Assembly (NCBI GenBank): GCA_977020255.1
Contig: CDROCS010002694.1
Coordinates: forward strand, 620,001 to 684,000
Origin: Obrimoposthia wandeli
Lineage: Eukaryota
Direction: 5' to 3'
DNA: 64,000 nt
Under the pieces are notes generated by a model. It did not search any database, was not told the DNA's origin, and worked only from the letters and a program-made list of their open reading frames with translations. Both the position numbers and the translations under genes were made by a program. This document shows, one piece after another, positions 1-23,984 of this stretch (positions are counted from its first letter, which is position 1; each line of letters starts with the position of its first letter).

Positions 1-128
1 GCGAAAATAACTACAGTATCACTTTACCTCTCACAACTACAAATGTAAACGACCCGTGTCATACCCTAACATTTACCACGTGCCCCTTCGGGGCGGGCTT
101 CATTCTTGATCTACAGGCACGAAAAACA
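1..128 (+). repeat. Left subterminal region of element A, homologous (inverted) to element B ~22930-23092
   Basis: GCGAAAATAACTACA at 1 is the reverse complement of TGTAGTTATTTTCGC near 23078-23092. GCTTCATTCTTGA.CT.CAGGCAC matches the reverse complement of ~22950-22972. Confidence 0.8.
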
Positions 129-198
129 GCGGTCAGATCTATATAATTTAAAGGAGAAAAAACAAAATACGAGACAAAATTATTTTTCTAAATATTTA

Positions 199-603
199 TT
201 AAACATAAAACAACATATTGGCTTCACTCAAAGTCCAAAGAGGCTGCATTTCCCCGTCATCAGCAAAATATCCATTGAGACGTATTGAGATATTCCATAG
301 TTCTTCATCTAGAATTGGAGCAATCAAATATCCTAGATCATCTTTAAAATCAAGACTGGGATCAGTTTCAAGCTCGAAACAATTTCCTTCATATACATAA
401 TCAGGAATGTAAAATCCCAAAATATTTTTCAGTTGATCAAAATCAGTTGTTGTTAAAATTTCGATGAGATATTTTTTTTCCACTTTTGATATTTTCACAG
501 GATTCATAACTCGTATAATTTGATGCCTCTTTAATATATTACATAGTTTTCCTTTTGAAATTCTTTCTGGATAATAAAAATTTGCTACACATCTCTTATC
601 CAT
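199..603 (-). CDS. Polinton hypothetical protein (134 aa, MDKRCV...), left copy; carries the W-x-I-x-IRLxGY..PxW motif
   Basis: Open ORF, nearly identical to 15236-15640. TATAAACAT starts 37 nt before this ATG, favouring 603 over 651 as the start. Confidence 0.75.
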   Translation of the reverse strand: MDKRCVANFYYPERISKGKLCNILKRHQIIRVMNPVKISKVEKKYLIEILTTTDFDQLKNILGFYIPDYVYEGNCFELETDPSLDFKDDLGYLIAPILDEELWNISIRLNGYFADDGEMQPLWTLSEANMLFYV

Positions 604-737
604 TCTAAAATAAGGAAACTGATTAAAAACAATGTTTATAAAAAAATACATATAAGATACAAATAAAATACAAATAAAACTGATTATTAAATGAAAGAAA
701 CATAGTAAAACCGATTACAATTTATTACACACAAAAG

Positions 738-1271
738 TTAAGACATAGAAATATGAGCACGTTCAATTTTCCACATAGGCAACTTTGTTCCCATTTCATC
801 TTTCTTGTAACCATAAAGTCGAATTGTTACAGTCCATTGCTTCTTTTTCGGAAACGCATCAATATCAACATATCTTCCATAGTCATCTAGAAATGCTTCA
901 TCGGTTCCTCGGATATAAAATTCGTTCTTATTGAAAATAAAATTCGGAACTGCCTTTTCTATTTTCTGTTTAAGATATTGAAAATCTGGTTTTTGAATAC
1001 CTGATAGATAGTAGCTGAACTTTCTTCTTTCAATTGTCACAGGATTTATTAAAGCAATCAGTTGAGCCTTCTTCAAGAATCTGACTTTGTATTTGAAATA
1101 TTGTTTCACTTCTTCATACATATCCTTATCCGATTCTTCAACATTTCTTCGTCATCGCTTAATACCCGCTGGCTATCGTCCATCGTTGATAATTGTCTTT
1201 GATATGAATGCATTTACTGGGATTTGTCCTCCAATGGCGCATTCTTTTATACTAATTTCTAACAAAGACAT
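738..1271 (-). pseudogene. Polinton hypothetical protein (~177 aa, MSLLEISIKE...), left copy; two in-frame stops near the N-terminus
   Basis: ATG 1271 is in frame with the 738-1121 ORF. Inverted copy at 14363-15101. CCAAT boxes upstream. Confidence 0.7.
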
Positions 1272-1444
1272 GAATCTCATTGGTTAATATAACTAAAGCA
1301 TTGAATTTGATTGGACTATTTTTTTTTCTACCCCCCTCACCCAACACTCAAAAAACTAATTAACCCCATATAACACCCTTTAAAATTGAAAATCTCATAA
1401 TGCTCCCAAAAATGTGAGGAAGGTCCTGGGAGGCCGTTTTAGAT

Positions 1445-1783
1445 TTGCTAGGGCAACAGGATGCCGTCTCACGCCAGGTTCAGCGTGAGAAGGAGGAGAA
1501 ACAGAAGAAAGCTCCGCGGAAGAGGAAGGCTACTGCTTCTATGTCGGGGCCATCAACATCGGCTGCACCTCCTCCCAAAAAGTTGCGGCAACTATTGCCA
1601 AAACCTGAGGGAAGGACAATTGCTACAAAGCAACCGGTGAAGCCGAAAAAGAAACCGGGCCGGCCAAAGAAGAAAGAACCAGTACCGCTTTCTCCTATAA
1701 TACTTAGTCGGAGGGATTTCGACCCGGATGATCCCAATGATGACTTCGTAAAGATGTTTAAAAATATAATTTATAAACATTAG
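1445..1783 (+). pseudogene. 3' remnant of the terminal AT-hook-like gene (KKPGRPKKK)
   Basis: Near-identical to the C-terminal ~110 aa of ORF 21028-21672(-). Homology starts abruptly at ~1451. Confidence 0.8.
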
Positions 1784-2063
1784 TTTCATATGTTTTATTG
1801 TTAATATTTATTTAAATATCATATTTAAGTTAATTAAAATATCAACATGAAAAAAATATTTAATTTTTTCGCCTGTGATTGGACTAATAAGGAATCATTG
1901 AAATATTTTTAGGTTTAAATATAAATGCAATGATTAGTTATAGATTTATTAAACTTTCATTTGATACATAAAAATATATCATTTCATTGCTTGTGATTGG
2001 ATTAGAAATGTCTTAAATTTATATATATAGGTTCAAATTTATTAACTTCTTCATAATTAAAAA

Positions 2064-2396
2064 ATGGAATTCATTAAATTGCAAAGCTTGGTAGCAAAGA
2101 TAGAAGCAAACATCAAAATAAATTAGAAGAAAGGGGACTTAAGAAAGAGGGTCCTCAATCAAAATTTGTATGCTGCTGTCGTGACCGAGTGGAATCGCCG
2201 GGTGGAGATACAGGATAGGAGACTAGCAGAACGACGTCGAATCGTGGAGTGGAATAAGAAGATCGAATTGGAAAAAAGGAAGGTGGATGAAAAAAGAAGA
2301 GAAGATATGGAGGATATTCGGAGGCAAGCAAGAAAAAGAATCCTCCAAATTAAACCGGAAGAGGTCCGTCTACAAAAAAATAAATTTTTTGATTAA
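2064..2396 (+). pseudogene. Charged coiled-coil protein (110 aa, MEFIKLQSL...), one in-frame stop
   Basis: ATG 2064 is in frame with ORF 2166-2396. Homolog in element B at ~20480-20809(-). Confidence 0.7.
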
Positions 2397-2478
2397 TTAT
2401 TTGTCTTTATTGATTAGGTTACATAATTGTCTAAATATTTTACATAATTGTCTAAATATTTTACATAAGCATACTAAA

Positions 2479-2487
2479 TATAAACAA
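2479..2487 (+). promoter_or_regulatory. TATAAACAA motif, 33 nt before ATG 2512
   Basis: Recurrent element-wide motif; conserved in B (20434-20442). Confidence 0.65.
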
Positions 2488-2511
2488 ATTTATATATAAT
2501 GTTTTTGTAAA

Positions 2512-2715
2512 ATGGATAATAAAATTTGGAATAAATTATACATTAAATTATCTCCAGATTTAATGGAAGATTATAAAGAAAATTACTTTTCAGAAAATGA
2601 TACCGAGGAAATTGTTGGATATAAATTATGTAATTTAATTTCGAAATATTTAGGTATGTTTACATTTAATATAATTTAGAGAAATGACAATATATACCAA
2701 TCTTAACATGAAAGA
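2512..2715 (+). pseudogene. Small hypothetical protein (MDNKIWNKLY...); intron acceptor region partly deleted relative to B
   Basis: Homolog of the spliced B gene 20186-20408. Confidence 0.55.
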
Positions 2716-2756
2716 CTGAATACTTTGTTATTTTAATAAATTTTTGATTTTTTCGT

Positions 2757-2765
2757 TATAAACAA
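2757..2765 (+). promoter_or_regulatory. TATAAACAA motif, 36 nt before ATG 2793
   Basis: Conserved in B (20132-20140). Confidence 0.65.
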
Positions 2766-2792
2766 CGGGATTTGCTGCAAATTTAGATAATT

Positions 2793-3279
2793 ATGCAGGA
2801 ATATATCATAGATTTTGAGGCTTTCATTAACAAAAATGGTGATTATATTATAAAAGAATTATGTATTATGGATGTATGCGACGTTTTTTATCCTTTGCAT
2901 TTCATATTTCAAATAGATATCCCGTTTAAAAGTTTAGATTATAAGAAAAAATTTACTAATTTATATAACTAATTATTTTCATTTATTAAAATGGAAAGAA
3001 GGACAAAAGGCTTTTTGTGAAATATGTATTTTCGATACAATAACATCTAATTTTGATATAGAAAATGGAATTTTTTATGTTTTAGATGAAATGGATGGCA
3101 AAAAATATAAGACTTTAAAAAAATATTTTCCCAAATTGAGGTTGAATACTTTAAATATTTCACCTGATCATCTATTAAAAATTCAACAAAATATTTGCTG
3201 TCCATATCGTAATCATGGTGACCATTGCGCATATAAAAAATGTTTAAGTCTTTCTTATTATTACTTGACATGTAGATAA
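2793..3279 (+). pseudogene. DEDD/DnaQ-fold-like protein with C-terminal Cys/His motif (~162 aa), one frameshift
   Basis: IIDFEAF..IIKEL resembles an ExoI motif; C-terminal CCPYRNHGDHCAYKKC; frameshift near 2965. Homolog in B at 19646-20104. Confidence 0.55.
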
Positions 3280-3508
3280 ACAATTCTTCTAATTGGAGAA
3301 ATTCATTATTAAAATTTTACAACTAATTACAAATAAGCCTTTTGATTGGAGGAATAAAAATATTTTTTTAAACCAATAACAGATGAACAGTCCTTCTCAG
3401 TGGAGGGATAAATTCAATTTTTAATCCAATATGAAAAGAGCATGTGTGCATAAATTTTAGTATATAAGCAAACACTTTCTTCATTTAAATCCCCGACAAT
3501 TTGAAATA

Positions 3509-4230
3509 ATGACTATGGTAAGAATCTATACTTATTATTTCCTTATTAATATTTATTATTTCAGATTACTTGTATCCTGTTTCCAGCATATTGTGGTGCT
3601 TCGGCTCCGCATGGAGGAGAGACCTGCATGGAGATAATGTCCGCCTTCTATCGGACAAAGTCTCGCGGGCTTCACTTCTTCGTCTGCCCCTTCTGCAGAA
3701 CAATGGAGGAGAAGGAGTTTCGAGACTTCTTCGGTGAACATCAAGCTCATCTATCCTGTTTCACGGCCAACAACAAGAAGAGAGATATCGTGCAATTGGT
3801 GCGCGATTCGCAGGCCGCTCCAGCTCCAGCTCCAATTCCAGTTGCAGTCGATCAACCCTTTTACGGTCCTGCCATTGGTCCTTCTGTCCCGGCTCCTGAT
3901 TCTGTTGCTGCCCCATCCACTCAAATGACTAACAATGAGTGGATGAATGACATCTCCGAAGAAGATTTTGAGGAGTTGGCACCAGCAACCCAATTCTCGA
4001 ACAATGACTGGATGGAAAATATCACCCAGTCAGATTTCGAGATAGAGCAGCCTCAGTGGAGCGATAACTCCTGGTTGGAGACCATCGAGGAATCCGATTT
4101 CGTCGAGATAACGGACAACAGCTGGATGGATTCCATAAATGAAGAGGACTTCATTCCAGCTCCAGTTGGATTGCCTTCATTAGGTATTTTTTATTATTAT
4201 TTTTTAAAATTGTAATTATATATATTATTG

Positions 4231-4269
<39 letters not shown>

Positions 4270-7200
4270 TTATTCAGGAAATACCGTGATACAATCATCA
4301 TCCGCTACGACAGCTATGCCTCCCCTATTGCGAGTGCCTACATCGATGTTAGCACGCCTTAGAGGTAATAATTAAAAAAATATATATATATATTTTTTAA
4401 TATATTTATTTCAGCAGCATCAACCTCTACAACAGCCGCTTCTTCATCGGAAAGGTCAGCTTCTACCATGCCTACTCCAACTTCAAATGCAGCCTCTACA
4501 ACTGCCACTGTCTCATCATCTGCAGCAGCATCTATTACAGCAGCATCGTCTACACCAGCTGCGATTGCCTCAACATCGGCAGCATCACCAATAGCAGCAC
4601 CTTCAATCTCAGCTGCGTTTGTGTCAATTGTTAATATAAATAGTTGTCTTCCCGTTCAATTAGGGGGAGGTTTGTCAGCGACTGTAGGAAGAAAGAGGCG
4701 AGGCCAATTTCTTAATAAGGTCCCACCAAAAAAACGTAGAGAAAACGGTGCTACTGTAGAGTATCACCTAAATAATAAATATGTTATAGTTAAGGTGCCA
4801 TTAGGAAATGAAATTTTATTAAACGTAGGTGTAGATTCAAATATTGAAAATCTTTTAAAATCAGAAGTGACTAAATTAGGACAGGCTAAGGTTCAATTTT
4901 GCGCAACAGTGCAGTTTAAAAATGTCAATGAGGAAACTAAAACTTGGGTAATTTCACATAAAGCAACTGTTTTTTATGATAATTTTGTAACTGAAATTGG
5001 AAGAAACCTGGATGAAAAAATTGCTAATTATAGCGAGTTAAGTAGTGGATGGACTCTAGTTAGAATTCACGATGTTAGCTTTGTTCTAACAAAGTTCACT
5101 GACATGATATATCTTTCTGGGAGTTCATACATTCCTTCACCTAGATCTCTTCAACTTTCACGTTCTATTGTTAACGTACAAAAACAGTGATAACCTTTGC
5201 TTTCTGTATAGCGTGTTGGCCATCCTCAAAAGGGTTGTAATTACTGAACATAGAGAGCGTGTCAGTAAATATACCCTTTTTTAAATGAATTGCAGTATCA
5301 TGGAATAGATTTTCCTGTTAAATTAACTGCGATATCAAGATTTGAACATCTTAATAACTTGAGTATTAATGTATTCAAATATAATACTGATATCACAATT
5401 AATGTAACAGACGAAGAAATTTTAAAAAATCCTTTTGTAGATGTAATTTATAGGAGCAAAAAAGAGGGGACTCAGGTCAACTTAATTTTGCTCGAACAGT
5501 ATAATAAATTCTATTATGCTGCAATTCCCAGTTTAGATCGTCTTCTAAATTTAGATAATGGAGCCTTACCGGTTAGGATAAGGTGTAAGGGGTGTCATAG
5601 ATGTTTGCATGGATTCCGATCCGAGCTCTCTTACAGCAAACATCTGACATTATGTTCACTGAATCCTGATGACAATACGCTATATAGCATGCCTAAGGAT
5701 AAGGATTTAAAATGCAGGGGTTGGGCAAAATGCATACCCGTGGAATTCAGGGTGTATGCAGATTTTGAGTCAATTTAAGCATTGCACGACCAGTATGAGA
5801 GTATTCGCCTACCGTCTTCGGCAGGACTACTATTCTTAGGCCCCAATATTACACAGTATCATAAATTTTCCGGTACAAATTGTATTTAAGATTTTATGTT
5901 AAAATTAGAAGAATTAGGAACAACAATTGTCAAACCGTGGTATGATCTCAATGCCCATCAAGCAATGATCATGACAAGCATAAACTGGGTTAATTTTAAT
6001 TCTTTTATATTATGTTATTTGTGTGGAACCCAGTCTAAGTTAGTCAGAAATCACGATCATGTTACGGGGCGATACTTGGGAGCGGCGTGCAACCTCTGTA
6101 ACCTTGGCCGTCGTCTCCCTACAAAACCACGAATTCCCATCGTGTTTCATAACCTCAAAGGATATGATTTGCATCATATACTTAAATATGCGTTGGGTAC
6201 ATTAAGCTCTTGGGAAATTTCATGTATACCTCAAACGTCAGAGAAATATTTATCTTTAACTGCATATACTGAATTCTGCAGTTTAAGATTCATAGATTCT
6301 CTTCAGTTTATGAGCGGGTCTTTAAAAAATTTAACGGCATCTTTAAATGCATGGCCAATCACACAGTCAGTGTTCCCAGCTACGGTTAATGATAAGGGGA
6401 TTTTTCCGTATAAATTTGCGAAAACCTATGCAGATTTAGAAAATACTACAGAAATCCCACCCATAACTGAATTTGAAAGTGTAAGTCTTCAAGACTATAA
6501 TGAGGCCCGTACATTTTGGGCGAATAATTGTCGAAATCTTCTTGAATATATGCTTTATTATATGAAGTTAGACATTTATCTTTTAGCTGATGTTTTTGAG
6601 TCCTTTCGTGTAAAGTTTTTAGCAGAAGATGGGCTAGATCCCATGCATTTCTTTAGTTTACCTGGTCTTTCATGGGCAACAGCAATAAAAACTCTTAAAA
6701 TTAATATCGAGTTACTGCAAGATCCCGCGATGTATCAAATGTATGATTATGGTATACGCAGTGGAATGACTTTTGTCAACAAACATCATGTTGTCAAAAA
6801 TCAATCCACGGAGATTCTGTACATCGACATTAATAACAAACATTATGTTGTGCATTGGCGGCTTCTTCAATTCTACTTAAAGTTGGGAGCGAAAGTTACT
6901 CGAATTCATCGTGCTATAAGCTTCAGTCAAAACTTTGTGTTTAAAGACTTTATTGAGAAGAATTCTAGATAACGTAATTTGGCCACTAGCAAATTCGATC
7001 GGGATTTTACAAGTTAAAAAGTAATATCCTCTTTGGAAAAACTGTAGAGGACTTGCGGAAACGTATTTGTCTACGGTTTTGCAATGATGAGCGTAAACTA
7101 ATAACATATACTAGCAAGTACAACTTCAAGCGTAGTTTTACAATTGCAGATGACTTGGTAGCAGTGTTATTAGGAAAACAAAATATTTGACTCGATCGAC

Positions 7201-7787
7201 CGAGTTATATAGGTCAAACGGTTTTAGAAATTTCTAAACTCAGAATGTACGAGCTTCAATACATAGAATTGGAGAAATATCGACGAGAATTCAATTGTGA
7301 GATCAAAATCGCCACTGAGGACACTGACTCTTTCTTTTTAGAATGTAAAAATGTTAGTTTAAATAATCAATTATTACCGGCAATGTTTATGGACAACTTA
7401 TTAGATACCCATAAATATCCCGCTAACCATCATCTACACTCTATGAGTTTAAAGGATATTATCGGGAAATTTAAGGATGAAAGCGAAGGACAGGTTTCGT
7501 ATGATGATTGTATTTACCTACGCCCTAAATGCTACAGTTTACATGCATCTAATAATACATGTTCAATGAGAGCAAAGGGTGTGGAAAGAAACAATCTTAC
7601 ACATGAGGCCTAGCGGAAATTTTATGATACTGGGTGTATTGAAAGCGTTGAGCAAACTAGATTTATTTCAAGAGCCCATCAACTGTATTCCCATAAATCA
7701 ACAAAAATCGCTTTGAGTAGTAATGACGACAAGCGCTTTTGGGTAGAAAAGAACGCTAGCCTGGCTTATGGACACTTCCGAATTTAA
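3509..7787 (+). pseudogene. polB: Protein-primed family B DNA polymerase, spliced (exons 3509-3517, 3565-4183, 4278-4364, 4415-7787), multiple stops/frameshifts
   Basis: Endonuclease VII-like CYLC..HDHVTG..AACNLCN; FHNLKGYD; FIDS; KGIFPY; YMKLDIYLLADVFE; FYKLK..FGK; EDTDS; GKFKDE; RPKCY. Three frame-preserving GT-AG introns (47, 94, 50 nt). An in-frame deletion near 6838 removes the second half of motif A. Confidence 0.95.
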
Positions 7788-8013
7788 ACGGTTTTCATTT
7801 TTTGATTTTTTTAGTTTAGTTTTTTAAAATTTTAGATCCCTATGGCACCTTGACTCTAACTTTTTGTTATTTCAAAACATTTTTTAAGATGGACCTTATC
7901 TTTGCTGACAGATCTCATTGTGATGTTGTTTTTAATAAATGTATTAAAAAAAAATTCGTCTTATGTCTTTTATTATTTTACCCTTATATTTTTAGGGATT
8001 TTAAAAAAATAAT

Positions 8014-8433
8014 TCAAAATAAAACATTAAAAATATTTATTTTTATAACACACTTATAGTTTTGCAACGATAACCATAAAATACATAAATGTCCACAGTT
8101 TCTCGTCGCACGATCCTGATATTGTATCTTGTTGTAAAATACTCTTCTTCGTCCTTTTTGAATAGTCGAAAAAAGTTTGTGTGGATAATACATTGCAAGT
8201 GGATCAAATACATGTATTGTCCACTCTCTAACATAAATAGCTATCCAATGTTCTCCTGGTAAATTCGAAGTATGAGTATTGATAATGTATCTTCCAGATT
8301 GAAAAAATGGAATCATATCAATATGATAAACTCCATTGAATTTATCACCCAAGACCTTCTCTGCTGATTCTTGTACTTGTACTGAACTAAATAAAAATTA
8401 ATAAATATAAATTTTAAAAATGTCTTACTTCAT
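8014..8433 (-). CDS. Adenain-type (Ulp1-like) cysteine protease, spliced (exons 8433-8429 and 8386-8014)
   Basis: GEHW, VFDP and Q...NCGH catalytic motifs. A 42-nt GTAAG..TTAG intron restores the N-terminus MNSVQVQ. Confidence 0.9.
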
Positions 8434-8434
8434 T

Positions 8435-9664
8435 CTATAATATGACAGTTCTGTTTTTATTGATTTGTATTTCGGAATCAAACACTACGTAAATAAGCAC
8501 CGTAGTAGGATGTGTTAAAGCTGCATTGAACTTAATTTCTAGTCGTAAATTTCCATCCTTTGGTAGTTGGCATTGGTTTATATCAAAGTCTGGTGCCAAA
8601 ACAAATGTGAAGAAGGGGCAGCTGCTTTTAAACTCAGTAAAAGAAATACCATTGTTTATATTTTTATCTAGTTGGCCCAAATTCCGAAAAATAGATTGCG
8701 TATAAGCCAAAGCATAAGCGTTACCTTCGAAATCTGTTTTATATGTTTCGCGATAATCAGTATGTCTTGAAAGTGTCACTGAACCTACATTAAGATTGTC
8801 AAATTGAGTTGCATCTGTCGTATAATTTCCTAGAAACTTTGCAGTTTTTTGAAAAGAAATTAAAATGAATTTCGGTAATCTTACATCACCGAAAATTTTA
8901 ACCTTATTAAAAGCTTGTGTACCCGTACCTAAAGAGTAGGATATAAGTTTAGTTTCTCTAATAGGATAACAAGCATTGATTTTTTCCATTCCTATATTAT
9001 GTGCCATTAAAACTGATTGCTCGGTTTTAACTCTCCGAACATACAATTTTGCATCCAAAATATCAAATCTAGGTTTTAGAACGTCTGTGCTTATCAAAGA
9101 AAAATTCCATTTATAACGTTTCAAACGAAGATGTACATTAACACCGGGAATTAAATATTTCGGTTGTTCAAAGAAATTCAATCTCAAAGACCCACACATT
9201 TCGTAAGCTTTAGAACCCGCAATCCATTCTTTGCGAGTTGCGACCGTTTTATCATAACCAATGGTTGCCAAATTAGTATTTTGAGTATCAGTACTATAAT
9301 TCAAAAGACTTTCAATCAAAGCTTTATGAGCATAGGAAGAATTTCCACCTTCAATTTTGACATTATTAAGAGTAACAATGGCATCACTAAATAAAGAATT
9401 AAAGAGATAATTTACAGGTGTTACATCTGCATTTTCATCTAAATTAGTACCATCCCGATTTAATACTTTTATTTGAACATAAAGCAAAGTATCATTCAAA
9501 TCTAAATACTCGCTATTGGAACCATTAATATTAAATTCTAAATCGGTTAAAGTGGTTCCTGAAACTGAGTTAACTAGAAATATTTCTTCAAAGGAAACAT
9601 TATCTACAACTACTTGTGGAAGCGGTTTATCAAAAATACACAATTCAGTTTTGGCGCAACTCAT
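8435..9664 (-). CDS. Double jelly-roll major capsid protein (409 aa, intact ORF)
   Basis: N-terminal CAKTELCIF and C-terminal GNLRLEIKF..AL...TVLIY motifs typical of Polinton MCP; position between core gene and protease. Confidence 0.9.
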   Translation of the reverse strand: MSCAKTELCIFDKPLPQVVVDNVSFEEIFLVNSVSGTTLTDLEFNINGSNSEYLDLNDTLLYVQIKVLNRDGTNLDENADVTPVNYLFNSLFSDAIVTLNNVKIEGGNSSYAHKALIESLLNYSTDTQNTNLATIGYDKTVATRKEWIAGSKAYEMCGSLRLNFFEQPKYLIPGVNVHLRLKRYKWNFSLISTDVLKPRFDILDAKLYVRRVKTEQSVLMAHNIGMEKINACYPIRETKLISYSLGTGTQAFNKVKIFGDVRLPKFILISFQKTAKFLGNYTTDATQFDNLNVGSVTLSRHTDYRETYKTDFEGNAYALAYTQSIFRNLGQLDKNINNGISFTEFKSSCPFFTFVLAPDFDINQCQLPKDGNLRLEIKFNAALTHPTTVLIYVVFDSEIQINKNRTVIL

Positions 9665-10039
9665 TTTGCAAATATTGTTCCTTCAACTTTCTTACGTTTG
9701 TTTATATTGATTTTTTGCTTCTTTTTACTTTTAAATCCACTACCTCCTTGGTTTTTATTTGATTTACGTTTTCTAATCAAATTAGCAACTTCTGGTAAAA
9801 CATTATCAAGTTCATCAAGCGCATGCTTCTTAAAAGTTGGTATTAGTTTATTGAAAATTAGATGAAAGGTAGTCCTTTCCTAATTTTGATATAAACCGCC
9901 CGAGTCTCTTTAAAAGAGGAAAGGCAAATCTACATAATGTTCTAAGCCAGCCAGATCCATATTGTTTACCAACAAAATATGGTAATTCTCCACCTTGTTG
10001 GCTTTAACTATAAGCTTCAATTATTGCTGGATTCGCCAT
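9661..10039 (-). pseudogene. Small basic virion core-type protein (QQGGELPYFVGKQYGSGW...; basic tail); stop and frameshift
   Basis: Q-x-G-x-G motifs and K/R-rich C-terminus; its TGA overlaps the MCP ATG (ATGA). Confidence 0.7.
9698..9706 (-). promoter_or_regulatory. TATAAACAA motif, 42 nt before MCP ATG
   Basis: Lies inside upstream coding sequence. Confidence 0.6.
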
Positions 10040-11081
10040 TTTGTTTTCTTAAATGTATTGTTAAACTTGTCTTGGCCCCGTACGTGAAATCTATTAGTTG
10101 TCCGGAATCATCTCTAATATTTACTTCAATATTGTTTATAGAAAAGAGAGAAACTGGAAGATACATTGGTTGATCTATACACATACCGACAGCGTCCCCA
10201 TCTCTAGTTTCATTTTTAGATATCCATATTGTTCTCAAAAGTGGAACTCGCTGTCCTCCTACAAGAGTTGGTTCTATTAAATTAGTATAAATATATAAAT
10301 GATTAACAGCATTTAAAAGCTTTGCCTTATTTTTAGCTTTTATGGTTTTTATTGTATGGGTTTCAAAGGTATTTCTGTTTAAACCAAGGTTTTTAGCGAG
10401 TTTATCATCAAATAAAACTCGTATTATATTGCTCTTTACTGTAAACGTTATTTTACCATTTTTTAATGTTACACATTTATCGAAATATTCACTACATTCC
10501 TTCTGTATTAATTTACAGAAATTTTCTTCACTATCTAATTTATAATCTTTTGAAAACATTTTCAGTTCCACTACATACTTTGGTATCGTTTCAACTGAAA
10601 ACACTTTTGTTACTCTATCAGGAACATTTTTAAACGATTTAGATGAGGCTATATCAGATCTCTTCATACCTACTACATGTCCACTGTCAAAACCGAATTG
10701 AAGAGCTTCTCTATCAGATCCAAATATAATTTGAATAGGTTTTAAAAAATGTTTTAGTCTATTTTTAAATATGACTTTGTTTTTTTCATATATTACTTTC
10801 ACTTCTTTATCTATACAATTGTAATAGAATTTTCCTTTACTATTAAACCCAATCACAACTGCAGTTGTTTTTTCATGATCAACTTCTTTTGTAAACGAAA
10901 TATGTGAGTTTTTTCTGATAGTAATTGGAGAATAATAAAAGGAAAATTCTGTTAAAGCCGCTTCCCATTCTCCTTGGAGATTTATAGGATTTTCCCAATC
11001 GATAATAAAGCTACTAGCGTTATTATCTGGTTGAGTCTTCGGACATCCGTTACTAGGTAAAACCATATACATAGACTTCAT
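10017..11081 (-). CDS. Minor capsid protein / penton (354 aa, intact ORF)
   Basis: MVLPSN..PDN.ASSF..INLQGEWEAALTE and LYIYTNLIEP.LVG..RVPLLR..YLPV..IEVNIRDDSG motifs. Confidence 0.88.
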   Translation of the reverse strand: MKSMYMVLPSNGCPKTQPDNNASSFIIDWENPINLQGEWEAALTEFSFYYSPITIRKNSHISFTKEVDHEKTTAVVIGFNSKGKFYYNCIDKEVKVIYEKNKVIFKNRLKHFLKPIQIIFGSDREALQFGFDSGHVVGMKRSDIASSKSFKNVPDRVTKVFSVETIPKYVVELKMFSKDYKLDSEENFCKLIQKECSEYFDKCVTLKNGKITFTVKSNIIRVLFDDKLAKNLGLNRNTFETHTIKTIKAKNKAKLLNAVNHLYIYTNLIEPTLVGGQRVPLLRTIWISKNETRDGDAVGMCIDQPMYLPVSLFSINNIEVNIRDDSGQLIDFTYGAKTSLTIHLRKQNGESSNN

Positions 11082-12091
11082 ATTATATTAGATGCTGATA
11101 TTCAAGTTGGATCTGAATAACCATGCCATTTAACATAGTATTGTTTATGTTTACCGGCACCCTTAGATTTTAATATTTTTTGAATCCGGTAAACGCTAGG
11201 TTTATTTGATATTACTTGTAGTTCTTGCTCGTAAAATTTACCGTGAGCGATATTATTGTCAGCATCTTTAATAGTATACATTATTGGATTACTCTTTTGA
11301 TCAATTTTTCTTATACAAAATATTTCATCGCTCCAATTCTGATCAAAGTTATTAATAAATGGAGTAGAGCTAATTTTCGAAATTCGGACATATTCGTTTT
11401 TCTTATATTTAGCTTTTTTAATATTTTCTTTTTATTCCTGTTCAACCAGATATCTATAGAATTTTTTCAACAGGTCTCATTCCCTTGAGACTTCTATGTT
11501 CCGAGTGATTATAGGCATGTATTATTTTAGGTAAAACTTGGATCCATTTATTATTTCCTTCTTTTGTGAAATACTTTTTTATTTGATCTCTTAAAGTACG
11601 ATTAAATCTTTCTACTACAGCTGCTTTATACTGTGAAAACACAGAGTAGTGATTTATATTATTTTGTTTAAATAAAGATTGAACTTGCTTATTATAAAAT
11701 TCTTTTCCTAAATCAGTTTGCACATTTTGTGGAATGTCCTCTTTTAATATTTCTTTAATGGCTTCAAGCATAGCTATTGAAGACTTTGCTTTAACTGGAA
11801 TTGCACGAGCAATTTTTGCTAAATACATCAATACATGTTAAAATATATCGATATCCCTTATTAATGGAAGAATATGGGATCATCTCCATCAAATCCATTT
11901 GCCATAAATTATTAGGACCGCTGGTTTTGTAAGCTCTAGTTGGAAGCTCTCATCGGCTTGTTCAGACTGTAGGCTAACTGGTTGCTCAGCCATTTCTGCG
12001 TTTTCTTGTATTTTTGTTTTGTTCTTTTTGCTAATTTTGAAACTCCGGTGTAGCCAAGTGGATCTTTTGGGTTGAACCATATCTTCTCCAT
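11078..12091 (-). pseudogene. Retroviral-type (rve) integrase with C-terminal chromodomain, frameshifted
   Basis: DDE triad QMDL / QTDLGKEF / VVERFNRTL; C-terminal YRIQKILK..KQYYVKWHGY chromodomain; stop overlaps penton ATG (ATGA). Confidence 0.92.
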
Positions 12092-12149
12092 TACAACAAT
12101 TGGAATAGAAAGATAATTTAAATTTAGGTAAAGAAGGGTTAGCACCCAT
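11889..12149 (-). CDS. Candidate small N-myristoylated protein overlapping the integrase 5' end (MGANPS...NCC)
   Basis: MGxxxS consensus plus CC; CATAAACAA motif starts 33 nt before this ATG. Confidence 0.4.
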   Translation of the reverse strand: MGANPSLPKFKLSFYSNCCNGEDMVQPKRSTWLHRSFKISKKNKTKIQENAEMAEQPVSLQSEQADESFQLELTKPAVLIIYGKWI

Positions 12150-12173
12150 ATCTTTAGCTGATTTTATAAATAA

Positions 12174-12182
12174 TTGTTTATG
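12174..12182 (-). promoter_or_regulatory. CATAAACAA motif, 33 nt before ATG 12149
   Basis: One-mismatch copy at the typical spacing. Confidence 0.55.
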
Positions 12183-12202
12183 AACGTGTCGCAGCTATAA
12201 TA

Positions 12203-12508
12203 CTACTGATAATTGAAGCAACAAACTGGAATAACAGCCCCTATGAAACCACCATTCTGTTTAAGAATAATATTTCGTTTCCTTTTTTTACTTTTTACAT
12301 TAGCAATATCTAGAAGAGTTTTTCTATATTTCTTTAATATATTTTTCCGATTTCCAACTTTTACTCGACCCAAAACTATATTATACAAAACTTCCAATAA
12401 ATCATCTACAACAAAAGATGGAAATGCTTTAAGAATAATCATTCTCTTATGAGAAGAGGCTTTGACTAAAGCTTTAAAATAGGGTATGCTTCTTTGTATT
12501 TTCTTCAT
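12203..12508 (-). CDS. Conserved small basic Polinton virion protein with QNGGF motif (101 aa)
   Basis: Basic helical protein ending ILKQNGGFIGAVIP, typical of Polinton genes between ATPase and integrase. Confidence 0.75.
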   Translation of the reverse strand: MKKIQRSIPYFKALVKASSHKRMIILKAFPSFVVDDLLEVLYNIVLGRVKVGNRKNILKKYRKTLLDIANVKSKKRKRNIILKQNGGFIGAVIPVCCFNYQ

Positions 12509-12535
12509 TTTAATAAAAAAGGTTCAATTTAAATA

Positions 12536-12544
12536 TTGTTTATA
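12536..12544 (-). promoter_or_regulatory. TATAAACAA motif, 36 nt before ATG 12508
   Basis: Contains the stop codon of the upstream 46-aa ORF. Confidence 0.65.
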
Positions 12545-12680
12545 TTCGAAGCCATTTAAGTGTTTTTTTATTTCTAACTACAGATTTGATTAATTTTTTC
12601 ACTTCTTTTTTCTTAATGATTCTTTTTTTTGATTTCTTAGGGTTTGCTTTACGTTTTACTATCAACTTCTTAAAAGGCAT
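12540..12680 (-). CDS. 46-aa lysine-rich protein MPFKKLIVKRKANPKKSKKRIIKKKEVKKLIKSVVRNKKTLKWLRI (below ORF-track cutoff)
   Basis: Manual translation; 21 of 46 residues are K/R; has its own TATAAACAA 40 nt upstream. Confidence 0.7.
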   Translation of the reverse strand: MPFKKLIVKRKANPKKSKKRIIKKKEVKKLIKSVVRNKKTLKWLRI

Positions 12681-12687
12681 TATAAAT

Positions 12688-13334
12688 TTAACTTTTAGGA
12701 TTGTTCTCTATTTGTTTATAAACAGTTACTTCCTTATAATTAAATATGTCGGTTAAAACACGTAAATCATCTGGGCAAGCTTGTGTAAAGTCAATAAATA
12801 TATACCCATGTGCTTGTTTAGCAGCATCGTGGAATGAATCAACTAGAAAGGACTTATTTTGAGGAAATGCCTGTCTGGCCACGAAATCAACAACTGTTTG
12901 ATCTCTAGGATTTTTAAATAAAACTAAGTAATGCACATTAAGATTTCTAGTTCTATGGTGACCTCCTTGGTGAAAAAGATTTTGAGTGATAAATATAACT
13001 GTTACTTCACGATTTCTTGCAATCTTCGTAAATAATTATTAAAGTCTGATTCCTTGTTAGCTTCCTGATACAAATCATCAATTATTATTACATCTTCTTT
13101 TTACAATCTTTCACACCAATTTGCATCAAATCCTTCAATAAATTGTATTCCCTTCAACTTGCAAACTTCTGTTTTGGTTAATCCGCTTTCCCCTCCTCCA
13201 CCATGATGCCAATAAATATTTTTGAAACTAGATTTGAAAAGAGATTCATTTTGCAACAATTTACATACGAAATGTGTCTTTCCACTTCCACTGGGACCAA
13301 CTATTTGAAATACAGCATTATTATTTAGCTCCAT
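12688..13334 (-). pseudogene. A32/FtsK-like genome packaging ATPase; one stop (13101-13103) and one frameshift (~13035)
   Basis: Walker A GPSGSGKT, Walker B IIIDD, ITQNLF, LFKNPRD. Confidence 0.93.
12712..12720 (-). promoter_or_regulatory. TATAAACAA motif, 40 nt before ATG 12680
   Basis: Inside ATPase coding sequence. Confidence 0.6.
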
Positions 13335-13361
13335 TGCATATACTCTTTCATTATTTTAATA

Positions 13362-13370
13362 TTGTTTATA
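13362..13370 (-). promoter_or_regulatory. TATAAACAA motif, 36 nt before ATPase ATG
   Basis: Recurrent motif. Confidence 0.65.
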
Positions 13371-13373
13371 TTA

Positions 13374-13646
13374 TCATAGAAGTTTCCTTATTGAAATGTA
13401 CAATGTTAGAGCTATTGTAGATGAAATACAAAAATTAATTAATGAATATTTGGTTATAATTTTATTTATTTGTGTACGATTTCTAAATTCTCGAATAACG
13501 TGTGATCTAACCAATATTTCAATGTTATCTCTTGTTATATCATTATTTTTTAATTCTGATAAAATTTCTTTACCCCTAATTTTTCCAGAAAATATTTCGT
13601 CGGCAAGACGATCCACTTCATTGTCTCTATTTATAGTATTATTCAT
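13374..13646 (-). CDS. Hypothetical 90-aa protein with hydrophobic C-terminus (possible TM helix)
   Basis: Open ORF with TATAAACAA 33 nt upstream; diverged homologous DNA near 59064-59190. Confidence 0.65.
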   Translation of the reverse strand: MNNTINRDNEVDRLADEIFSGKIRGKEILSELKNNDITRDNIEILVRSHVIREFRNRTQINKIITKYSLINFCISSTIALTLYISIRKLL

Positions 13647-13670
13647 TTGAAACAATAAGTTTAAACGGGT

Positions 13671-13679
13671 TTGTTTATA
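13671..13679 (-). promoter_or_regulatory. TATAAACAA motif, 33 nt before ATG 13646
   Basis: Contains the TAA stop of the TBP-like gene. Confidence 0.65.
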
Positions 13680-14171
13680 GAAAAAATAACAATATGTAAT
13701 AAGATATATTTTCTAAAATCAAATCAACAATGTCTGAATAATCAAAATTTTTCAATTCCAATATCATAACTTTACCACTGGAAAATATATTTACACATAG
13801 CGGTTTAAACTTCAAATAACTGAGAACAGGAAAAATTTCTGGTTCAAACATGCATTCTTCTTTCATTTTCTCTGCAGTTTTAAAAAGATTTATCTGTTTC
13901 CCAAGATTAGCCGAAATCGTGATTGATTGTATTGCAGTGATTCGAATTCCAAATGATAAATTGAACCCAAGTATTGGTATTTTGCATCCCATAACACGAC
14001 AATTTCCTAAAAGAATTAAATATGAAAATAAAAAAACTAACCTGTAGGAAAAATAACAACTGTAAAATTGTCAAACTTTTCCACATATTGTCTCGGCTTC
14101 CTTTCATTGAATGGTAAGTACGAAACATCATCTTCTGTTCTACCTTTATAATTTATATTTACGAGTTTCAT
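13675..14171 (-). CDS. TATA-binding-protein-like factor (153 aa), spliced (exons 14171-14042 and 14006-13675)
   Basis: Repeat 1: MKLVNINYKG...VVIFPTGNCRVMGCK. Repeat 2: IQSITISANL...FEPEIFPVL...VNIFSSGKVMI. A 35-nt GT-AG phase-1 intron joins them in frame. Confidence 0.88.
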
Positions 14172-14198
14172 TAGACTAAATTTGTATTCTTTAAAATC

Positions 14199-14209
14199 TT
14201 CTTTATATA
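14199..14209 (-). promoter_or_regulatory. Canonical TATA box (TATATAAAG) ~36 nt before the TBP-like ATG
   Basis: Reverse strand reads ACATATATAAAGAAG. Confidence 0.55.
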
Positions 14210-14362
14210 TGTCTGAACCTGCTTTTTTATTGCACGTTTCTTGTAATTATCTTGCAAACCTATTATTATTGGATGATATATTTCTTCCAATCAAATTTGA
14301 TTTTTAATATGGATTTAGTCCAATCAAATTCAATGCTTTAGTTATATTAACCAATGAGATTC

Positions 14363-15101
14363 ATGTCTTTGTTAGAAATTAGTATAAAAGAATTCGTCAT
14401 TAGAGGGCAAATCATAGTAAATGCATTCATATCAAAGACAATTATCAACGATGGATGATAGCAAACGGGTATTAAGCGATGAGGAAGATATAGAAATGTT
14501 TGAAGAATCGGATAAGGATATGTATGAAAAAGTGAAACAATATTTCAAATACAAAGTCAGATGTCTTTGTTAGAAATTAGTATAAAAGAATTCGTCATTA
14601 GAGGGCAAATCATAGTAAATGCATTCATATCAAAGACAATTATCAACGATGGATGATAGCCAACGGGTATTAAGCGACGAGGAAGATATATAAATGTTTG
14701 AAGAATCGGATAAGGATATGTATGAAGAAGTGAAACAATATTTCAAATACAAAGTCAGATTCTTGAAGAAGGCTCAACTGATTGCTTTAGTAAATCCTGT
14801 GACAATTGAAAGAAGAAAGTTCAGCTACTATCTATTAAATATTCAAAAACCAAATTTTCTATATCTTAAACAGAAAGTTGAAAAGGCAGTTCCGAATTTT
14901 ACTTTCAATAAGAACGAATTTTATATCCGAGGACCCGATGAAGCATTTCTAGATGACTATGGAAGATATGTTGATATTGATGCATTTCCGAAAAAGAAGC
15001 AATGGACTGTAACAATTCGACTTTATGGTTACAAGAAAGATGAAATGGGAACAAAGTTGCCTATGTGGAAAATTGAACGTGCTCATATTTCTATGTTTTA
15101 A
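14363..15101 (+). pseudogene. Right copy of the ~177-aa hypothetical gene, with a ~198-bp tandem duplication of its 5' part
   Basis: ATGTCTTTGTTAGAAATTAG occurs at 14363 and 14561; 14694-15101 is open. Confidence 0.75.
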
Positions 15102-15235
15102 CTTTTGTGTGTAATAAATTGTAATCGGTTTTACTATGTTTCTTTCATTTAATAATCAGTTTTATTTGTATTTTATTTGTATCTTATATGTATTTTTTTA
15201 TAAACATTGTTTTTAATCAGTTTCCTTATTTTAGA

Positions 15236-15640
15236 ATGGATAAGAGATGTGTAGCAAATTTTTATTATCCAGAAAGAATTTCAAAAGGAAAACTATGTAA
15301 TATATTAAAGAGGCATCAAATTATACGAGTTATGAATCCTGTGAAAATATCAGAAGTGGAGAATAAATATCTCATCGAAATTTTAACAACATCTGATATT
15401 GATCAATTGAAAAATATTTTGGGATTTTACATTCCTGATTATGTATATGAAGAAAATTGTTTCCAGCTTGAAACTGATCCCAGTCTTGATTTTAAAGATG
15501 ATCTAGGATATTTGATTGCTCCAATTCTAGATGAAGAACTATGGAATATCTCAATACGTCTCAATGGATATTTTGCTGATGACGGGGAAATGCAGCCTCT
15601 TTGGACTTTGAGTGAAGCCAATATGTTGTTTTATGTTTAA
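15236..15640 (+). CDS. Right copy of the 134-aa hypothetical protein
   Basis: Near-identical to 199-603(-); TATAAACAT at 15199. Confidence 0.75.
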   Translation: MDKRCVANFYYPERISKGKLCNILKRHQIIRVMNPVKISEVENKYLIEILTTSDIDQLKNILGFYIPDYVYEENCFQLETDPSLDFKDDLGYLIAPILDEELWNISIRLNGYFADDGEMQPLWTLSEANMLFYV

Positions 15641-15920
15641 TAAATATTTAGAAAAATAATTTTGTCTCGTATTTTGTTTTTTCTCCTTTAAATTATATAG
15701 ATCTGACAGATTTTTTATCCTATAAATAGATATTTAACATGTAGTAATCTAAAATCTTTCTTAAAAATAGTAGTAATATATTATTTAAAATCTCGTCTGC
15801 GATAAGCCGCCGAGACCAATATGGATTCCCGTGGTCTTCTCTAACCACTTTTGAGATTCGCAGTAAAATTTTTAAAAATTGTGGTGGGGGGTACCCTTTG
15901 GGTGGAATGGAGACATACAT

Positions 15921-16006
15921 GAAATTTCACTCCACACACATGCACAGTTTTAAAAGACAGAGGAGGGGGGGAGGGGTGTGGATTAGACCGGACACATCCA
16001 CCAACT
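15921..16006 (+). repeat. Right terminal inverted repeat of element A
   Basis: GAAATTTCACTCCACACACATGCAC...GTGGATTAGACCGGACACATCCACCAACT, matching 24018-24098. Confidence 0.85.
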
Positions 16007-19000
16007 TACGTTTTCTAGAATTCTTCTCAATATAGTCTTTAAACACTAAGTTTTGACTAAAGCTTATAGCACGATGAATTCGAGTAACTTTCGCTCCCAA
16101 CTTTAAGTAGAATTGAAGAAGCCGCCAATACACAACATAATTCAACTTGTCTTCATGTGTTAACAATAATTTCTTAACCTTTGAATTAGGTGGGCATTGA
16201 TGAACATGTGCTACTGGGAGATTATCTAATTTATCATGCACATTGGAAGGGATTGTTAAGTCAACCTCAACCAAATAGCCGATGTCTGATGAAACTGTAT
16301 CAACAGTAGCCAAATCTGTCATCAACTTATTCAACTCTTCCTCATCATAAACCCACTTAAAATTGGCATGAGGAAGAGGTTGAGTAAGCGCCCACCCATA
16401 CAAATTATTAATATCAATGTACAGAATCTCCGTGGATTGAATTTTGACAACATGATGTTTGTTGACAAAAGTCATTCCACCGCGTATACCATAATCATAC
16501 ATTTGATACATCGCGGGATCTTGCAGTAACTCGATATTAATTTTAAGTGTTTTTATTGCTGTTGCCAATGAAAGACCAGGTAAACTAAAGAAAAGCATGG
16601 GATCTAGCCCATCTTCTGCTAACGATTTTACACGAAAGGACTCAAAAACATAAACTAAAAGATAAATGTCTAACTTCATATAATAAAGCATATATTCAAA
16701 TAGATTTCGACAATTATTCGCTCAAAATGTACGGGCCTCATTATAGTCTTGAAGACTTAAACCCTCAAATTCAGTTATGTGTGGGATTTCTGTAGTATTT
16801 TCTAAATCTGCAAAGGTTTTCGCAAATTTATACGGAAAAATCCCCTTATCATTAACCGTAGCTGGGAACACTGACTGTGGGATTGGCCATGCATTTAAAG
16901 ATGCCGTTAAATTTTTTAAAGACCCGCTCAAAAACTGCAGAGAATCTATGAATCTTAAACTGCAGAATTCAGTATATGCAGTTAAAGATAAATATTTCTC
17001 TGACGTTAGAGGTATACATGTACCCAACGCGTATTTAAGTATATGATGCAAATCATATCCTTTGAGGTTATGAAGAACGATGGGAATGCGTGATTTTTTA
17101 GGGAGACGACGGCCAAGGTTACAGAGGTTGCACGCCGCTCCCAAGTATCGCCTCGTAACATGATCATGATCTCTGACTAACTTAGACTGGGTTCCACACA
17201 AATAACATAATCTACAAGAATTAAAATTAACCCAGTCTATGCCTCTCATGGTCATTGCTTGATGAGCATTAAGATCATACCACGGTTTGACAATTGTTGT
17301 TCCTAATTCCTCTAATTTTAACATAAAATCTAAAATACAATTTGGACCGGAAAATTTATGATACTGTGTAATATTGGGGCCTAAGAATAGGTGGTGAGCC
17401 GGTAGGTGAATACTCTCATACTCTCATGCTATATAGCGTATTGTCATCAGGATTCAGTGAAAATAATGTCAGATGTTTGCTGTCAGATGTTAGCTTGGAT
17501 CGGAATGACACCACTTACACCTTATCCTAACCGGTAAGGCTCCATTATCTAAATTTAGAAGACGATCTAAACTGGGAATTGCAGCATAATAATAAAAATT
17601 ATTATGTTCGAGCAAAATTAAGTTGACCTGAGTCCCCTCATTTTTGCTCCTATAAATTACATCTACAAAAGGATTTTTAAATATTTCTTCATCTGTTACA
17701 TTAACTGGGATATCAGTATTATATTTGAATACATTATTACTCAAGTTATTAAGATGTTCAAATCTTGATATCGCAGTTAATTTAACAGGAAAATATATTC
17801 CATGATACTGCAATTCATTTAAAAAAGGTGTATATTTACTGACACGCTCTCTATGACACCCCTTTTGAGGATGGCCAACACGCTATACAGAAAGCAAAGG
17901 TTATCAAAGGTTATATGTTTTGTATGTTAACAATGGAACGTGAAAGTTGAAGAGATCTAGGTGAAGGAATGTATGAACTCCCAGAAAGATATATCATGTC
18001 AGTGAACTTTGTTAGAACAAAGCTAACATCGTGAATTCTAACTAGAGTCCATCCACTACTTAACTCGCTATAATTAGCAATTTTTTCATCTAAGTTTCTT
18101 CCAATTTCAGTTACAAAATTATCATAGAAAACAATTGCTTTATTTGAAATTACCCAAGTTTTAGTCTCCTCATTGACATTTTTAAACTGCACTGTTGCAC
18201 AAAATTGAACCTTAGCCTGTCCTAATTTAGTCACTTCTGATTTTAAAAGATTTTCAATATTTGAATCTACATCTACGTTTAATAAAATTTCATTTCCTAA
18301 TGGCACCTTAACTATAACATATTTATTATTTAGATGATACTCTATAGTAGCACTGTTTTCTCTACGTTTTTTTGGTGGGACCTTATTAAGAAATTGGCCT
18401 CGCCTTTTTCTTCCTACAATCGCTGACAAACCTCCCCTAATTGAACGGGAAGACAACTATTTATATTAAAAGTTGAGGTGGAAGGAGCTGCTATTGGACA
18501 TGCTGCCGATGTTGAGGCAATCGCAGCTGATGTAGACGATGCTGCTGTAGTAGATGCTACCGCAGATGATGAGACAGTAGATGCAGCATTTGGAGTAGTA
18601 GCCGACATTGCCGACAAAGAAGCGGCTGTTGTAGAGGATGATGCTGCTGAAATAAATATATTAAAAAATAAATATATTTTTAAAAATTATTACCTCTAAG
18701 ACGTGCTAACATCGATGTAGGCACTCGTGATGGGGGAGGAATAGCTATCGTAGCGGATGACGGCTGTATCACGGTATTTCCTGAATAAAAATAATAATAA
18801 AATATATATAATTACAATTTAAAAAAAATAATCTGAAAAATAATTTTAAAAAATTCTAATGAATGCAATCCAACTGGAGCTGGAATGAAGTTCTCTTCAT
18901 TGACGGAATCCATCCAGCTGTCGTCTGTTATCTCGACGAAATCGGATTCCTCGATGGTCTCCAACCATGAGTTATCACTCCATTGCTCCATCTCGAAATC

Positions 19001-19437: not shown

Positions 19438-19645
19438 TATTTCAAATAGTCGGGGATTTTAATGAAGAAAGTGTTTGCTTATATACTAAAATTTATGCAC
19501 ACATGCTCTTTTCCTATTGGATTGAAAAATTGAATTTTATTGAGAAGGATTGTTTATCTGTTAAATGGTCGAAAAAAAAAATTTTATTCTTCCAATCAAA
19601 AGAATTATTTGTAATTGAATGAAAATTATGAATTAGAAGAATTGT

Positions 19646-20104: not shown

Positions 20105-20185
20105 AATTACCCAAATTTGTAGCAAATCCCATTGTTTATAACGAAAATAACCATTAATCAAAAATTTATTAAAATAACAAAGTAC

Positions 20186-20408: not shown

Positions 20409-20479
20409 CTTACAAAAAACATTATATATAAATTTGTTTATATTTAGACAATTATGTAACATAATCAATAAAGACAAAA

Positions 20480-23860: not shown

Positions 23861-23984
23861 CGCCCCGAGAGGGGCGAAAAAACTAGGATATTGTCGTCAT
23901 CCCAAGGCGCGAGCGTGGTGGGCGGGAAAACTGTGATATAGTCCGCATCCCGAGCCTTTCGCGCCGTCAGGCGTTTGGGGAGGG

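Follow-up and report, generated by a model that had tools for sequence, protein, structure and literature searches.

How, and indeed whether, animal Polintons turn from silent transposons into viruses that make particles has long been an open question, and a short DNA motif in the genome of Obrimoposthia wandeli bears on it. The window analyzed here (64,000 nucleotides (nt) of assembly GCA_977020255.1, contig CDROCS010002694.1, positions 620,001 to 684,000) contains a Polinton/Maverick, element A (123..15716), followed immediately by a partial, inverted second element, B (15716-21400). A first-pass annotation had proposed that a non-canonical TATA motif, TATAAACAA, precedes most viral start codons of element A and is bound by a TATA-binding protein (TBP)-like factor that the element itself encodes. 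Here, element A was compared with related Polintons, with Polintons lacking the TBP-like gene, and with host genes. The motif is a real, selected promoter motif, and by sequence there are two promoter classes: canonical TATA boxes on most TBP-like and polymerase genes, and the non-canonical box on most packaging and capsid genes. We consider it probable, though some way from certain, that this arrangement serves a two-step cascade, in which host TBP would act on the canonical boxes and a small element-encoded TBP (mini-TBP), together with host TFIIB and RNA polymerase II (Pol II), would then read ATAAAC.

A positioned, strand-specific box before packaging and capsid genes

Related loci were fetched by capsid alignment from metagenomes (80 loci, 28-62% identity), and 3 loci from genome contigs, as well as 20 copies of five further Polinton families from the O. 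wandeli genome, were added. A viral contig collection queried with capsid, TBP-like, polymerase, L087 capsid, and ATPase sequences gave no confirmed further locus, and a phage collection gave none. Starts were defined by homology with the motif unused (496), and 232 were left after near-duplicates, starts with <70 nt upstream, and the element L087 (see below) were dropped.

The 64 kb hold 12 perfect copies of TATAAACAA: nine in element A, two in element B, and one in the 41,000 nt of host flank. Markov models of orders 1-4 predict 0.74-1.22 copies in element A, where all nine copies lie on the coding strand, as the first-pass annotation had stated. For 10 of the 15 starts defined in element A, nATAAAC lies 33-42 nt upstream (two of these starts belong to the same gene in the terminal inverted repeats, TIRs); two starts have a box farther off, at 68 and 101 nt, and three have none within 110 nt; the background for nATAAAC is 24 of 579 ATGs. 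In the metagenome set, 37 of the 80 loci contain the perfect 9-mer, with 93 copies on the capsid strand and two on the opposite strand (a hand sum that includes some redundant loci).

Before the 232 starts, sense ATAAAC is absent at 20-30 nt; there are 4 occurrences at 10-19 nt, 59 at 30-39 nt, and 32 at 40-49 nt, followed by 9, 10, 22, 13, 27, and 14 in successive 10-nt bins to 109 nt; antisense ATAAAC does not exceed 3 per bin. The box is fixed in orientation (ATAAACA 89 sense, 2 antisense) and bounded in distance, with a floor of 31 nt, and it often stands 31-45 nt ahead of the start codon. It stands at 30-60 nt in 100 of the 232 starts, and many others have it at 61-110 nt. The 30-60 nt position is occupied most regularly before the ATPase (12/14), a PZ-like gene (12/14), a short open reading frame (ORF) starting with Met-Gly (8/11), and homologues of ORF 2793 (15/22), and less so before the major capsid (15/29), core (12/40), minor capsid (9/30), protease (3/24), and TBP-like (1/12) genes. 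The consensus is (T/C)ATAAAC(A), with T in 75 and C in 16 of 100 boxes at the first position and A after ATAAAC in 89. The box proposed earlier is thus real, while its definition narrows to a core of nATAAAC(A), the ends of the 9-mer being variable (first T 75/100, last A 62/100). Between -62 and -24, TATAAAC (76) outnumbers TATAAAT (10), TATAAAA (4), and TATAAAG (4); C at position 7 of the core sets the box apart from canonical TATAWAWR.

These counts also bear on the alternative that another host factor reads the box, be it a Forkhead protein or one of the divergent TBP paralogues of the host, which we regard as very unlikely. Forkhead proteins recognize RYAAAYA in either orientation, usually preferring GTAAACA, and ATAAACA fits this consensus, as the first-pass annotation had pointed out. 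The fit is otherwise poor: GTAAACA occurs 0 times, GTAAATA once, and ATAAATA 11 times against 89 for ATAAACA (2 antisense), and a fixed distance and strict orientation are untypical of Forkhead sites. A Forkhead site was rejected on these grounds.

All sites and ATG distances listed in the first-pass annotation are present in the window. Perfect copies on the plus strand lie at 2479..2487 (33 nt before ORF 2512) and 2757..2765 (36 nt before ORF 2793, a conserved gene that we take, from an eye reading of its motif, to be exonuclease-like; its 22 homologue starts are non-redundant). On the minus strand, TATAAACAA is found at 13671..13679 (33 nt before ORF 13646; kept in 10/10 aligned copies), 13362..13370 (36 nt before the packaging ATPase ATG, 13334), 12712..12720 (40 nt before a small basic ORF, 12680), 12536..12544 (36 nt before ORF 12508; 12/14 in relatives), 10132..10140 (101 nt before the core gene ATG, 10039, within Ile-Asn codons of the minor capsid gene), and 9698..9706 (42 nt before the major capsid ATG, 9664, within Ile-Asn codons of the core gene). 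The core-gene box has the same place in many relatives (95-109 nt). One-mismatch copies include CATAAACAA at 12174..12182 (minus, 33 nt before the Met-Gly ORF, 12149, which leads into the integrase region) and at 11141..11149 (minus, 68 nt before the minor capsid ATG, 11081, within C-terminal codons of the integrase), as well as TATAAACAT at 632..640 (minus) and 15199..15207 (plus), each 37 nt before the ATG (603 and 15236) of the same gene in opposite TIRs. Element B retains two copies, as previously noted, at 20434..20442 and 20132..20140 (both minus, 34 and 36 nt before an ATG). Ten aligned copies of element A mostly retain the box sites, which at 93-97% identity is weak evidence. The Met-Gly ORF (11889-12149), a conserved short ORF that has a CC pair, lies upstream of the integrase or is fused to it in the window and in homologues; the box at 12182 points to its ATG and not to the integrase core.

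Two listed copies were set aside. The perfect 9-mer within the major capsid gene (8652..8660, minus), 227 nt before the protease ATG at 8433, is followed by ATGs at +87 and +104 and is kept in only 3 of 61 distinct capsid genes; it is probably a codon by-product and not a protease promoter. The other distant perfect copy, 10140, is by contrast under selection (see below). The copy reported at 3463, 46 nt before ATG 3509, belongs to a canonical TATA box, TATATAAG, that begins at 3461.

Codon choice and the predicted transcription start

Many boxes lie within upstream coding sequence or across its stop codon, as the first-pass annotation had observed (e.g., 12720 in the C-terminal Tyr-Lys-Gln codons of the ATPase and 12544 on a stop). 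UAUAAA is a variant poly(A) signal, and the motif could in principle be a 3'-end signal of the upstream gene, or else a by-product of conserved Ile-Asn or Tyr-Lys-Gln peptides; copies at gene ends, copies in the Tyr-Lys-Gln frame that match default codons, and the 8660 copy all favor such an explanation. Codon choice was evaluated in 51 of 104 loci, hand-picked to lower redundancy, with expectations from the codon usage of each locus. Of the 46 Ile-Asn pairs located 30-60 nt before the next start, 40 are written ATA AAC (4.3 expected), as are 43 of the 71 at 61-110 nt (7.5 expected), compared to 37 of 359 elsewhere (31.4 expected). This excess near starts, about nine times expectation, indicates that the DNA sequence itself is selected, including the core-gene site at 101 nt. 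Enrichment over a codon-aware background is thus borne out in the Ile-Asn frame, while the Tyr/His-Lys-Gln frame shows a modest excess at 61-110 nt (31/39; 17.8 expected) and none nearer the start. A poly(A) signal is further contradicted by a distance bounded by the downstream ATG, by boxes so far inside upstream coding sequence that cleavage would come before the stop codon, by boxes before genes that are first in their unit (the TIR gene; L040, 1990 and 1145), and by the convergent ends of the polymerase and protease genes (7787-8014), which carry AATAAA and not the box. The poly(A) and peptide explanations fail on both position and codon tests, and we give them next to no weight; a poly(A) signal was rejected.

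Upstream ATGs suggest where transcription begins. Downstream of 76 boxes located 58-112 nt from their start, 72 of the 1900 positions at offsets 8-32 hold an ATG, and from offset 36 onward 24 of the 3719 do; with out-of-frame ATGs only and 4 uncertain-start rows dropped, the values are 43 of 1186 and 4 of 2335 (offsets >=36), compared to 24 of 2080 where the start has no box. The break in ATG density tracks the box and not the ATG. Because conserved codons inflate the early counts, the late depletion is the firmer half of this result. For instance, the 11149 box is followed by ATGs at +13, +20, and +25 and then by none up to the minor capsid start; codon-level support is weaker in its frame. 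Together with the 31-nt floor, the depletion fits a predicted transcription start about 30 nt downstream of the box, with leaders down to a few bases. The core-promoter reading of the first-pass annotation is well supported: the box keeps to one strand and a set position, selection for it acts on codons, and ATGs are lost ahead of the gene start.

The polymerase concerned is probably that of the host nucleus. Very short candidate GT-AG introns (~35-47 nt) interrupt the TBP-like (14007-14041), protease (8387-8428), and polymerase (3518-3564) genes, and their predicted splicing points to nuclear Pol II; the TBP-like intron is supported by intronless relatives.

Two classes of promoter

The TBP-like and polymerase genes of element A both have a canonical TATA box, and neither has the ATAAAC box. 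TATATAAA (14202..14209, minus) lies 38 nt before the TBP-like ATG, 14171, and is a putative early promoter; TATATAAG (3461..3468, plus) lies 48 nt before ATG 3509 of the putative first exon of the protein-primed-type polymerase gene, pPolB, and overlaps TATAAGCAA. Judged by eye in 13 lineages, the TBP-like gene has a canonical TATA at 30-60 nt in 7, and no lineage has an ATAAAC box standing by itself there; the one ATAAAC counted among 12 TBP-like starts comes from a family-A copy in which C follows a canonical box. Of 7 polymerase first exons with a visible start, 5 have a canonical TATA and that of E131 has a near-canonical one. The first-pass annotation had counted the canonical TATA of the polymerase gene among the motif copies, had not listed the TBP-like ATG, and thereby overlooked the existence of two classes.

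Polintons without a TBP-like gene, element L087, and host genes

Equal presence of the motif in Polintons lacking the TBP-like gene had been named beforehand as evidence that would count decisively against the proposal. A second Polinton group in the O. wandeli genome, with a PF21738 capsid and a length of ~12-15 kb (L144-L183, L302-L311), provides the comparison. The box precedes 1 of 125 of its starts (15 gene classes in 20 related copies). No TBP-like match was found inside four TIR-bounded copies, and in 11 copies examined over 20-30 kb such matches occur only in neighboring insertions of the first clade. De novo k-mer analysis of this group returned only A/T runs ending in TAAAAATG. Poxvirus late promoters resemble such A/T-rich starts ending in TAAAAATG, and the resemblance may hint at a cytoplasmic helper virus for the TBP-less group.

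L087, a near-complete Polinton of 20.5 kb with 28% capsid identity and a TBP-like protein 24% identical to that of L040, has no TATAAACAA. Instead, it has (C/T/G)TTAAGC: of 19 upstream windows, 8 contain TTAAGC (0.69 expected, Bonferroni p 7e-4), at looser distances of 23-94 nt. Its TBP-like protein differs at several otherwise conserved saddle positions; distant TBP-like proteins nearer to it number 3 of 145, too few to define the L087 surface.

Host promoters were represented by 7 actin and 16 histone rows, 3 of the latter with mis-picked ATGs. Many tubulin and HSP70 matches (L211-L270) are bacterial FtsZ/DnaK-like genes from bacterial contigs included in the assembly and were left out. Actin genes have a canonical TATA in 6 of 7 cases and ATAAAC in none. 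Among 16 distinct histone upstream regions (L187-L210), 8 carry sense TTGTTTA(A/T), mostly 35-60 nt and always within 110 nt before the picked ATG; this may be a promoter element of the host or else a splice tract rich in T. The host also carries a canonical-looking TBP repeat plus divergent TBP paralogues (L184, L186, L300, L301). Both observations lend something to the idea of another host reader, TTGTTTA being the reverse complement of the Polinton box core. The histone motif, however, has the opposite orientation and is often TTGTTTAA, and its counterpart, TTAAACA, occurs 0 times in the Polinton windows.

The TBP-like protein

The TBP-like gene of element A (13675..14171, minus; PF00352, E 6e-11) consists of two exons separated by the candidate 35-nt intron. 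The frame breaks at that same position in several O. wandeli families and runs on uninterrupted in L101-L104 and metagenome relatives; in L025, L040, and L101 it is a single frame of 144-149 amino acids (aa). An AlphaFold model of the L025 protein (pLDDT 94) has the TBP fold, with only two C-lobe helices predicted, and Foldseek matched it to TBP structures at E 5e-10 to 3e-7 (TM 0.66-0.80). These elements encode a protein with a predicted TBP fold.

Among 120 homologues (119 listed plus P0001, from a search confined to 78-342 aa), most of 144-165 aa, F40, F101, F117, P102, and an EPE stirrup are near-invariant. Saddle residues were mapped onto the DNA-facing positions of cellular TBP, by eye for the N-lobe, and we take the mapped saddle and stirrup positions to have the roles familiar from cellular TBP. 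The DNA-kinking Phe is kept at three of four positions, the remaining one being Pro in 120/120. At several saddle positions that are hydrophobic in TBP, the homologues have a conserved Asn, Arg, Cys, Ser, or Met instead, and the non-canonical residues include N6 (118/119), P25 (120), R46 (119), M48 (119), S70 (118), R105 (118), C113 (120), and N115 (119). As judged from this alignment, the DNA-facing surface is rewired and conserved in its altered state.

This surface matters to the main alternative, namely that the box is a true core promoter read by host TBP/TFIID as a weak TATA variant, its weakness alone delaying the genes until template number has risen and the mini-TBP being a decoy or helper. 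We regard this explanation as unlikely, though worth taking seriously, since wild-type TBP has been crystallized on TATAAACG (PDB 1QN3), a floor of 31-33 nt suits any TBP, the introns imply host Pol II, and either T or C is tolerated at the first position. If weakness were all that counted, many variants should do, yet TATAAAC is fixed across hosts and across 28-62% capsid identity; nor would the explanation account for the TBP-less group without the box, the different motif in L087, or a saddle conserved in its altered state.

A proposed early-to-late cascade

In the two-step cascade favored here, host TBP and Pol II would first transcribe the TBP-like and DNA polymerase genes from canonical TATA boxes. 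The resulting mini-TBP of 145-150 aa would then bind the ATAAAC box through its rewired saddle, being expected to prefer TATAAACA over TATAAAAG, and would recruit host TFIIB via its retained acidic stirrup, switching on the late ATPase, core, capsid, and most accessory genes. Where genes are tightly packed, the box is written into the last codons of the gene upstream. Binding of the box by the mini-TBP is suggested by their co-occurrence, by one motif change (L087), and by the conserved non-canonical residues; we infer start-site position, TFIIB recruitment, and early/late timing likewise from sequence.

Several observations weigh against this proposal. The box is at 30-60 nt in only 100 of 232 starts, and protease starts have it there in 3 of 24 cases and nowhere within 110 nt in the window. 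Canonical TATA boxes are missing from 6 of 13 TBP-like genes, and the L040 polymerase is preceded by the box. In the Tyr/His-Lys-Gln frame there is no excess at 30-60 nt (18/38; 15.2 expected), and homologous sites share codons, so that p values overstate independence. No initiator signal was found downstream of the boxes, with no clear YA peak at +18 to +39. The comparison of Polintons with and without TBP sets a single clade against another and so counts once, and L087 is the one case of a motif switch. The window family has Ser at position 105 (otherwise Arg) in 8 of 9 copies and still keeps the box, which speaks against a strict one-to-one residue-box code. Finally, a crystal structure (PDB 1QN3) has wild-type plant TBP on the C(-25) variant of the adenovirus major late promoter, TATAAACG, with Hoogsteen pairing reported (PMC4402545), so that a host TBP is able to hold such a sequence.

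A broader form of the proposal, for which we see the evidence as evenly balanced, is that the cascade is autonomous, that its lone 150 residues are the smallest known viral TBP, and that saddle and box co-evolve, ATAAAC and TTAAGC being orthogonal pairs. A short promoter code of this kind makes the passage from transposon to virus tractable: it predicts start sites, sorts early from late genes, and points to one small protein as the switch. If the proposal is true, a large group of Polintons has a herpesvirus-like early-to-late switch, which would be strong sequence evidence for a virus-like lytic program. A natural TBP of altered specificity would be useful for studies of TATA recognition, and the box aids annotation by marking true start codons and explaining conserved Ile-Asn at protein C termini.

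Element A and its surroundings

Element A has the gene set of a Polinton (pPolB, retroviral-like integrase, packaging ATPase, protease, and capsid, plus the TBP-like gene) and its TIRs, whose arms (123-1141 and 14698-15716) are 98% identical and extend to ~1318 and 14316; the right TIR contains a 198-nt tandem duplication (14363-14758). Pfam matches are DNA_pol_B_2, rve, Pox_A32, Peptidase_C5, a double jelly roll (DJR)-like capsid, and TBP. Only DNA_pol_B_2 and TBP pass the curated cut-off, several scores being low because the frames of several genes are broken; intact homologues are present in L025, L040, and L141. Element A has decayed; the family to which it belongs is very large, with very many genomic copies at 93-97% identity. 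Polintons are frequently nested within one another in this genome. In the window, a tandem array of GC-rich 14-15 nt repeats (23119-23880) adjoins element B, and a more diverged polymerase fragment (75-83% identity) lies at 28800-30100. Among relatives, a gene at L040:222-719 resembles, by eye, a ubiquitin-conjugating E2.

Comparison with known systems

Virophages as well as Polinton-like viruses (PLVs) have promoter motifs that are shared with a helper giant virus (mavirus and CroV, for example) and serve the helper's polymerase. Like them, the elements described here have a conserved motif before most of their genes; in contrast to them, introns and an element-encoded TBP-like gene suggest transcription by nuclear Pol II with no helper.

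The mini-TBP shares with cellular TBP its fold, three of four intercalating Phe positions, and the stirrup, and the box is identical over TATAAAC to the C(-25) adenovirus variant (PDB 1QN3). It differs in having only two C-lobe helices in the model, one Phe replaced by Pro, and substituted hydrophobic saddle residues. Element A resembles the Polintons, Mavericks, and adintoviruses of Starrett et al. (2021; PMC8502044) in its pPolB, integrase, ATPase, protease, both capsids, and TIRs; in the accessible text of that paper, TBP appears as a label in a figure legend only, the word 'promoter' is absent, and no such motif or two-class promoter scheme is described. Among the matches listed from an open-access library, no paper describing this Polinton motif was found, and if the proposal is true, this would be the first specificity-shifted TBP system described there outside herpesviruses and giant viruses.

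The closest parallel is with the late TBP mimics of herpesviruses, namely ORF24 of KSHV (Kaposi's sarcoma-associated herpesvirus), BcRF1 of Epstein-Barr virus (EBV), and UL87 of human cytomegalovirus (HCMV), which in the accessible accounts read a TATTWAA box (PMC12529657, PMC6541308, PMC8360532, PMC4922670) ~30 bp upstream of the start site (PMC12529657, PMC6541308). As far as those accounts go, beta- and gammaherpesviruses likewise have a non-canonical box at the TATA position of structural genes, conventional promoters on early genes, and a TBP-fold protein with a more polar, Asn-rich saddle working with host Pol II. Unlike TATTWAA, the Polinton box is ATAAAC, altered in its 3' half; the mini-TBP stands alone at 145-150 aa without a Pol II-binding or C-terminal DNA-binding domain, and no Pfam match to a herpesvirus-type Pol II-binding domain or to the five partner activators was found among 21 ORFs of the window. 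It also keeps the acidic TFIIB stirrup, which ORF24, as described in the accessible text, lacks. The Polinton system may work like the herpesvirus pre-initiation system without being a member of it, and, if so, the herpesvirus solution would have been reached independently.

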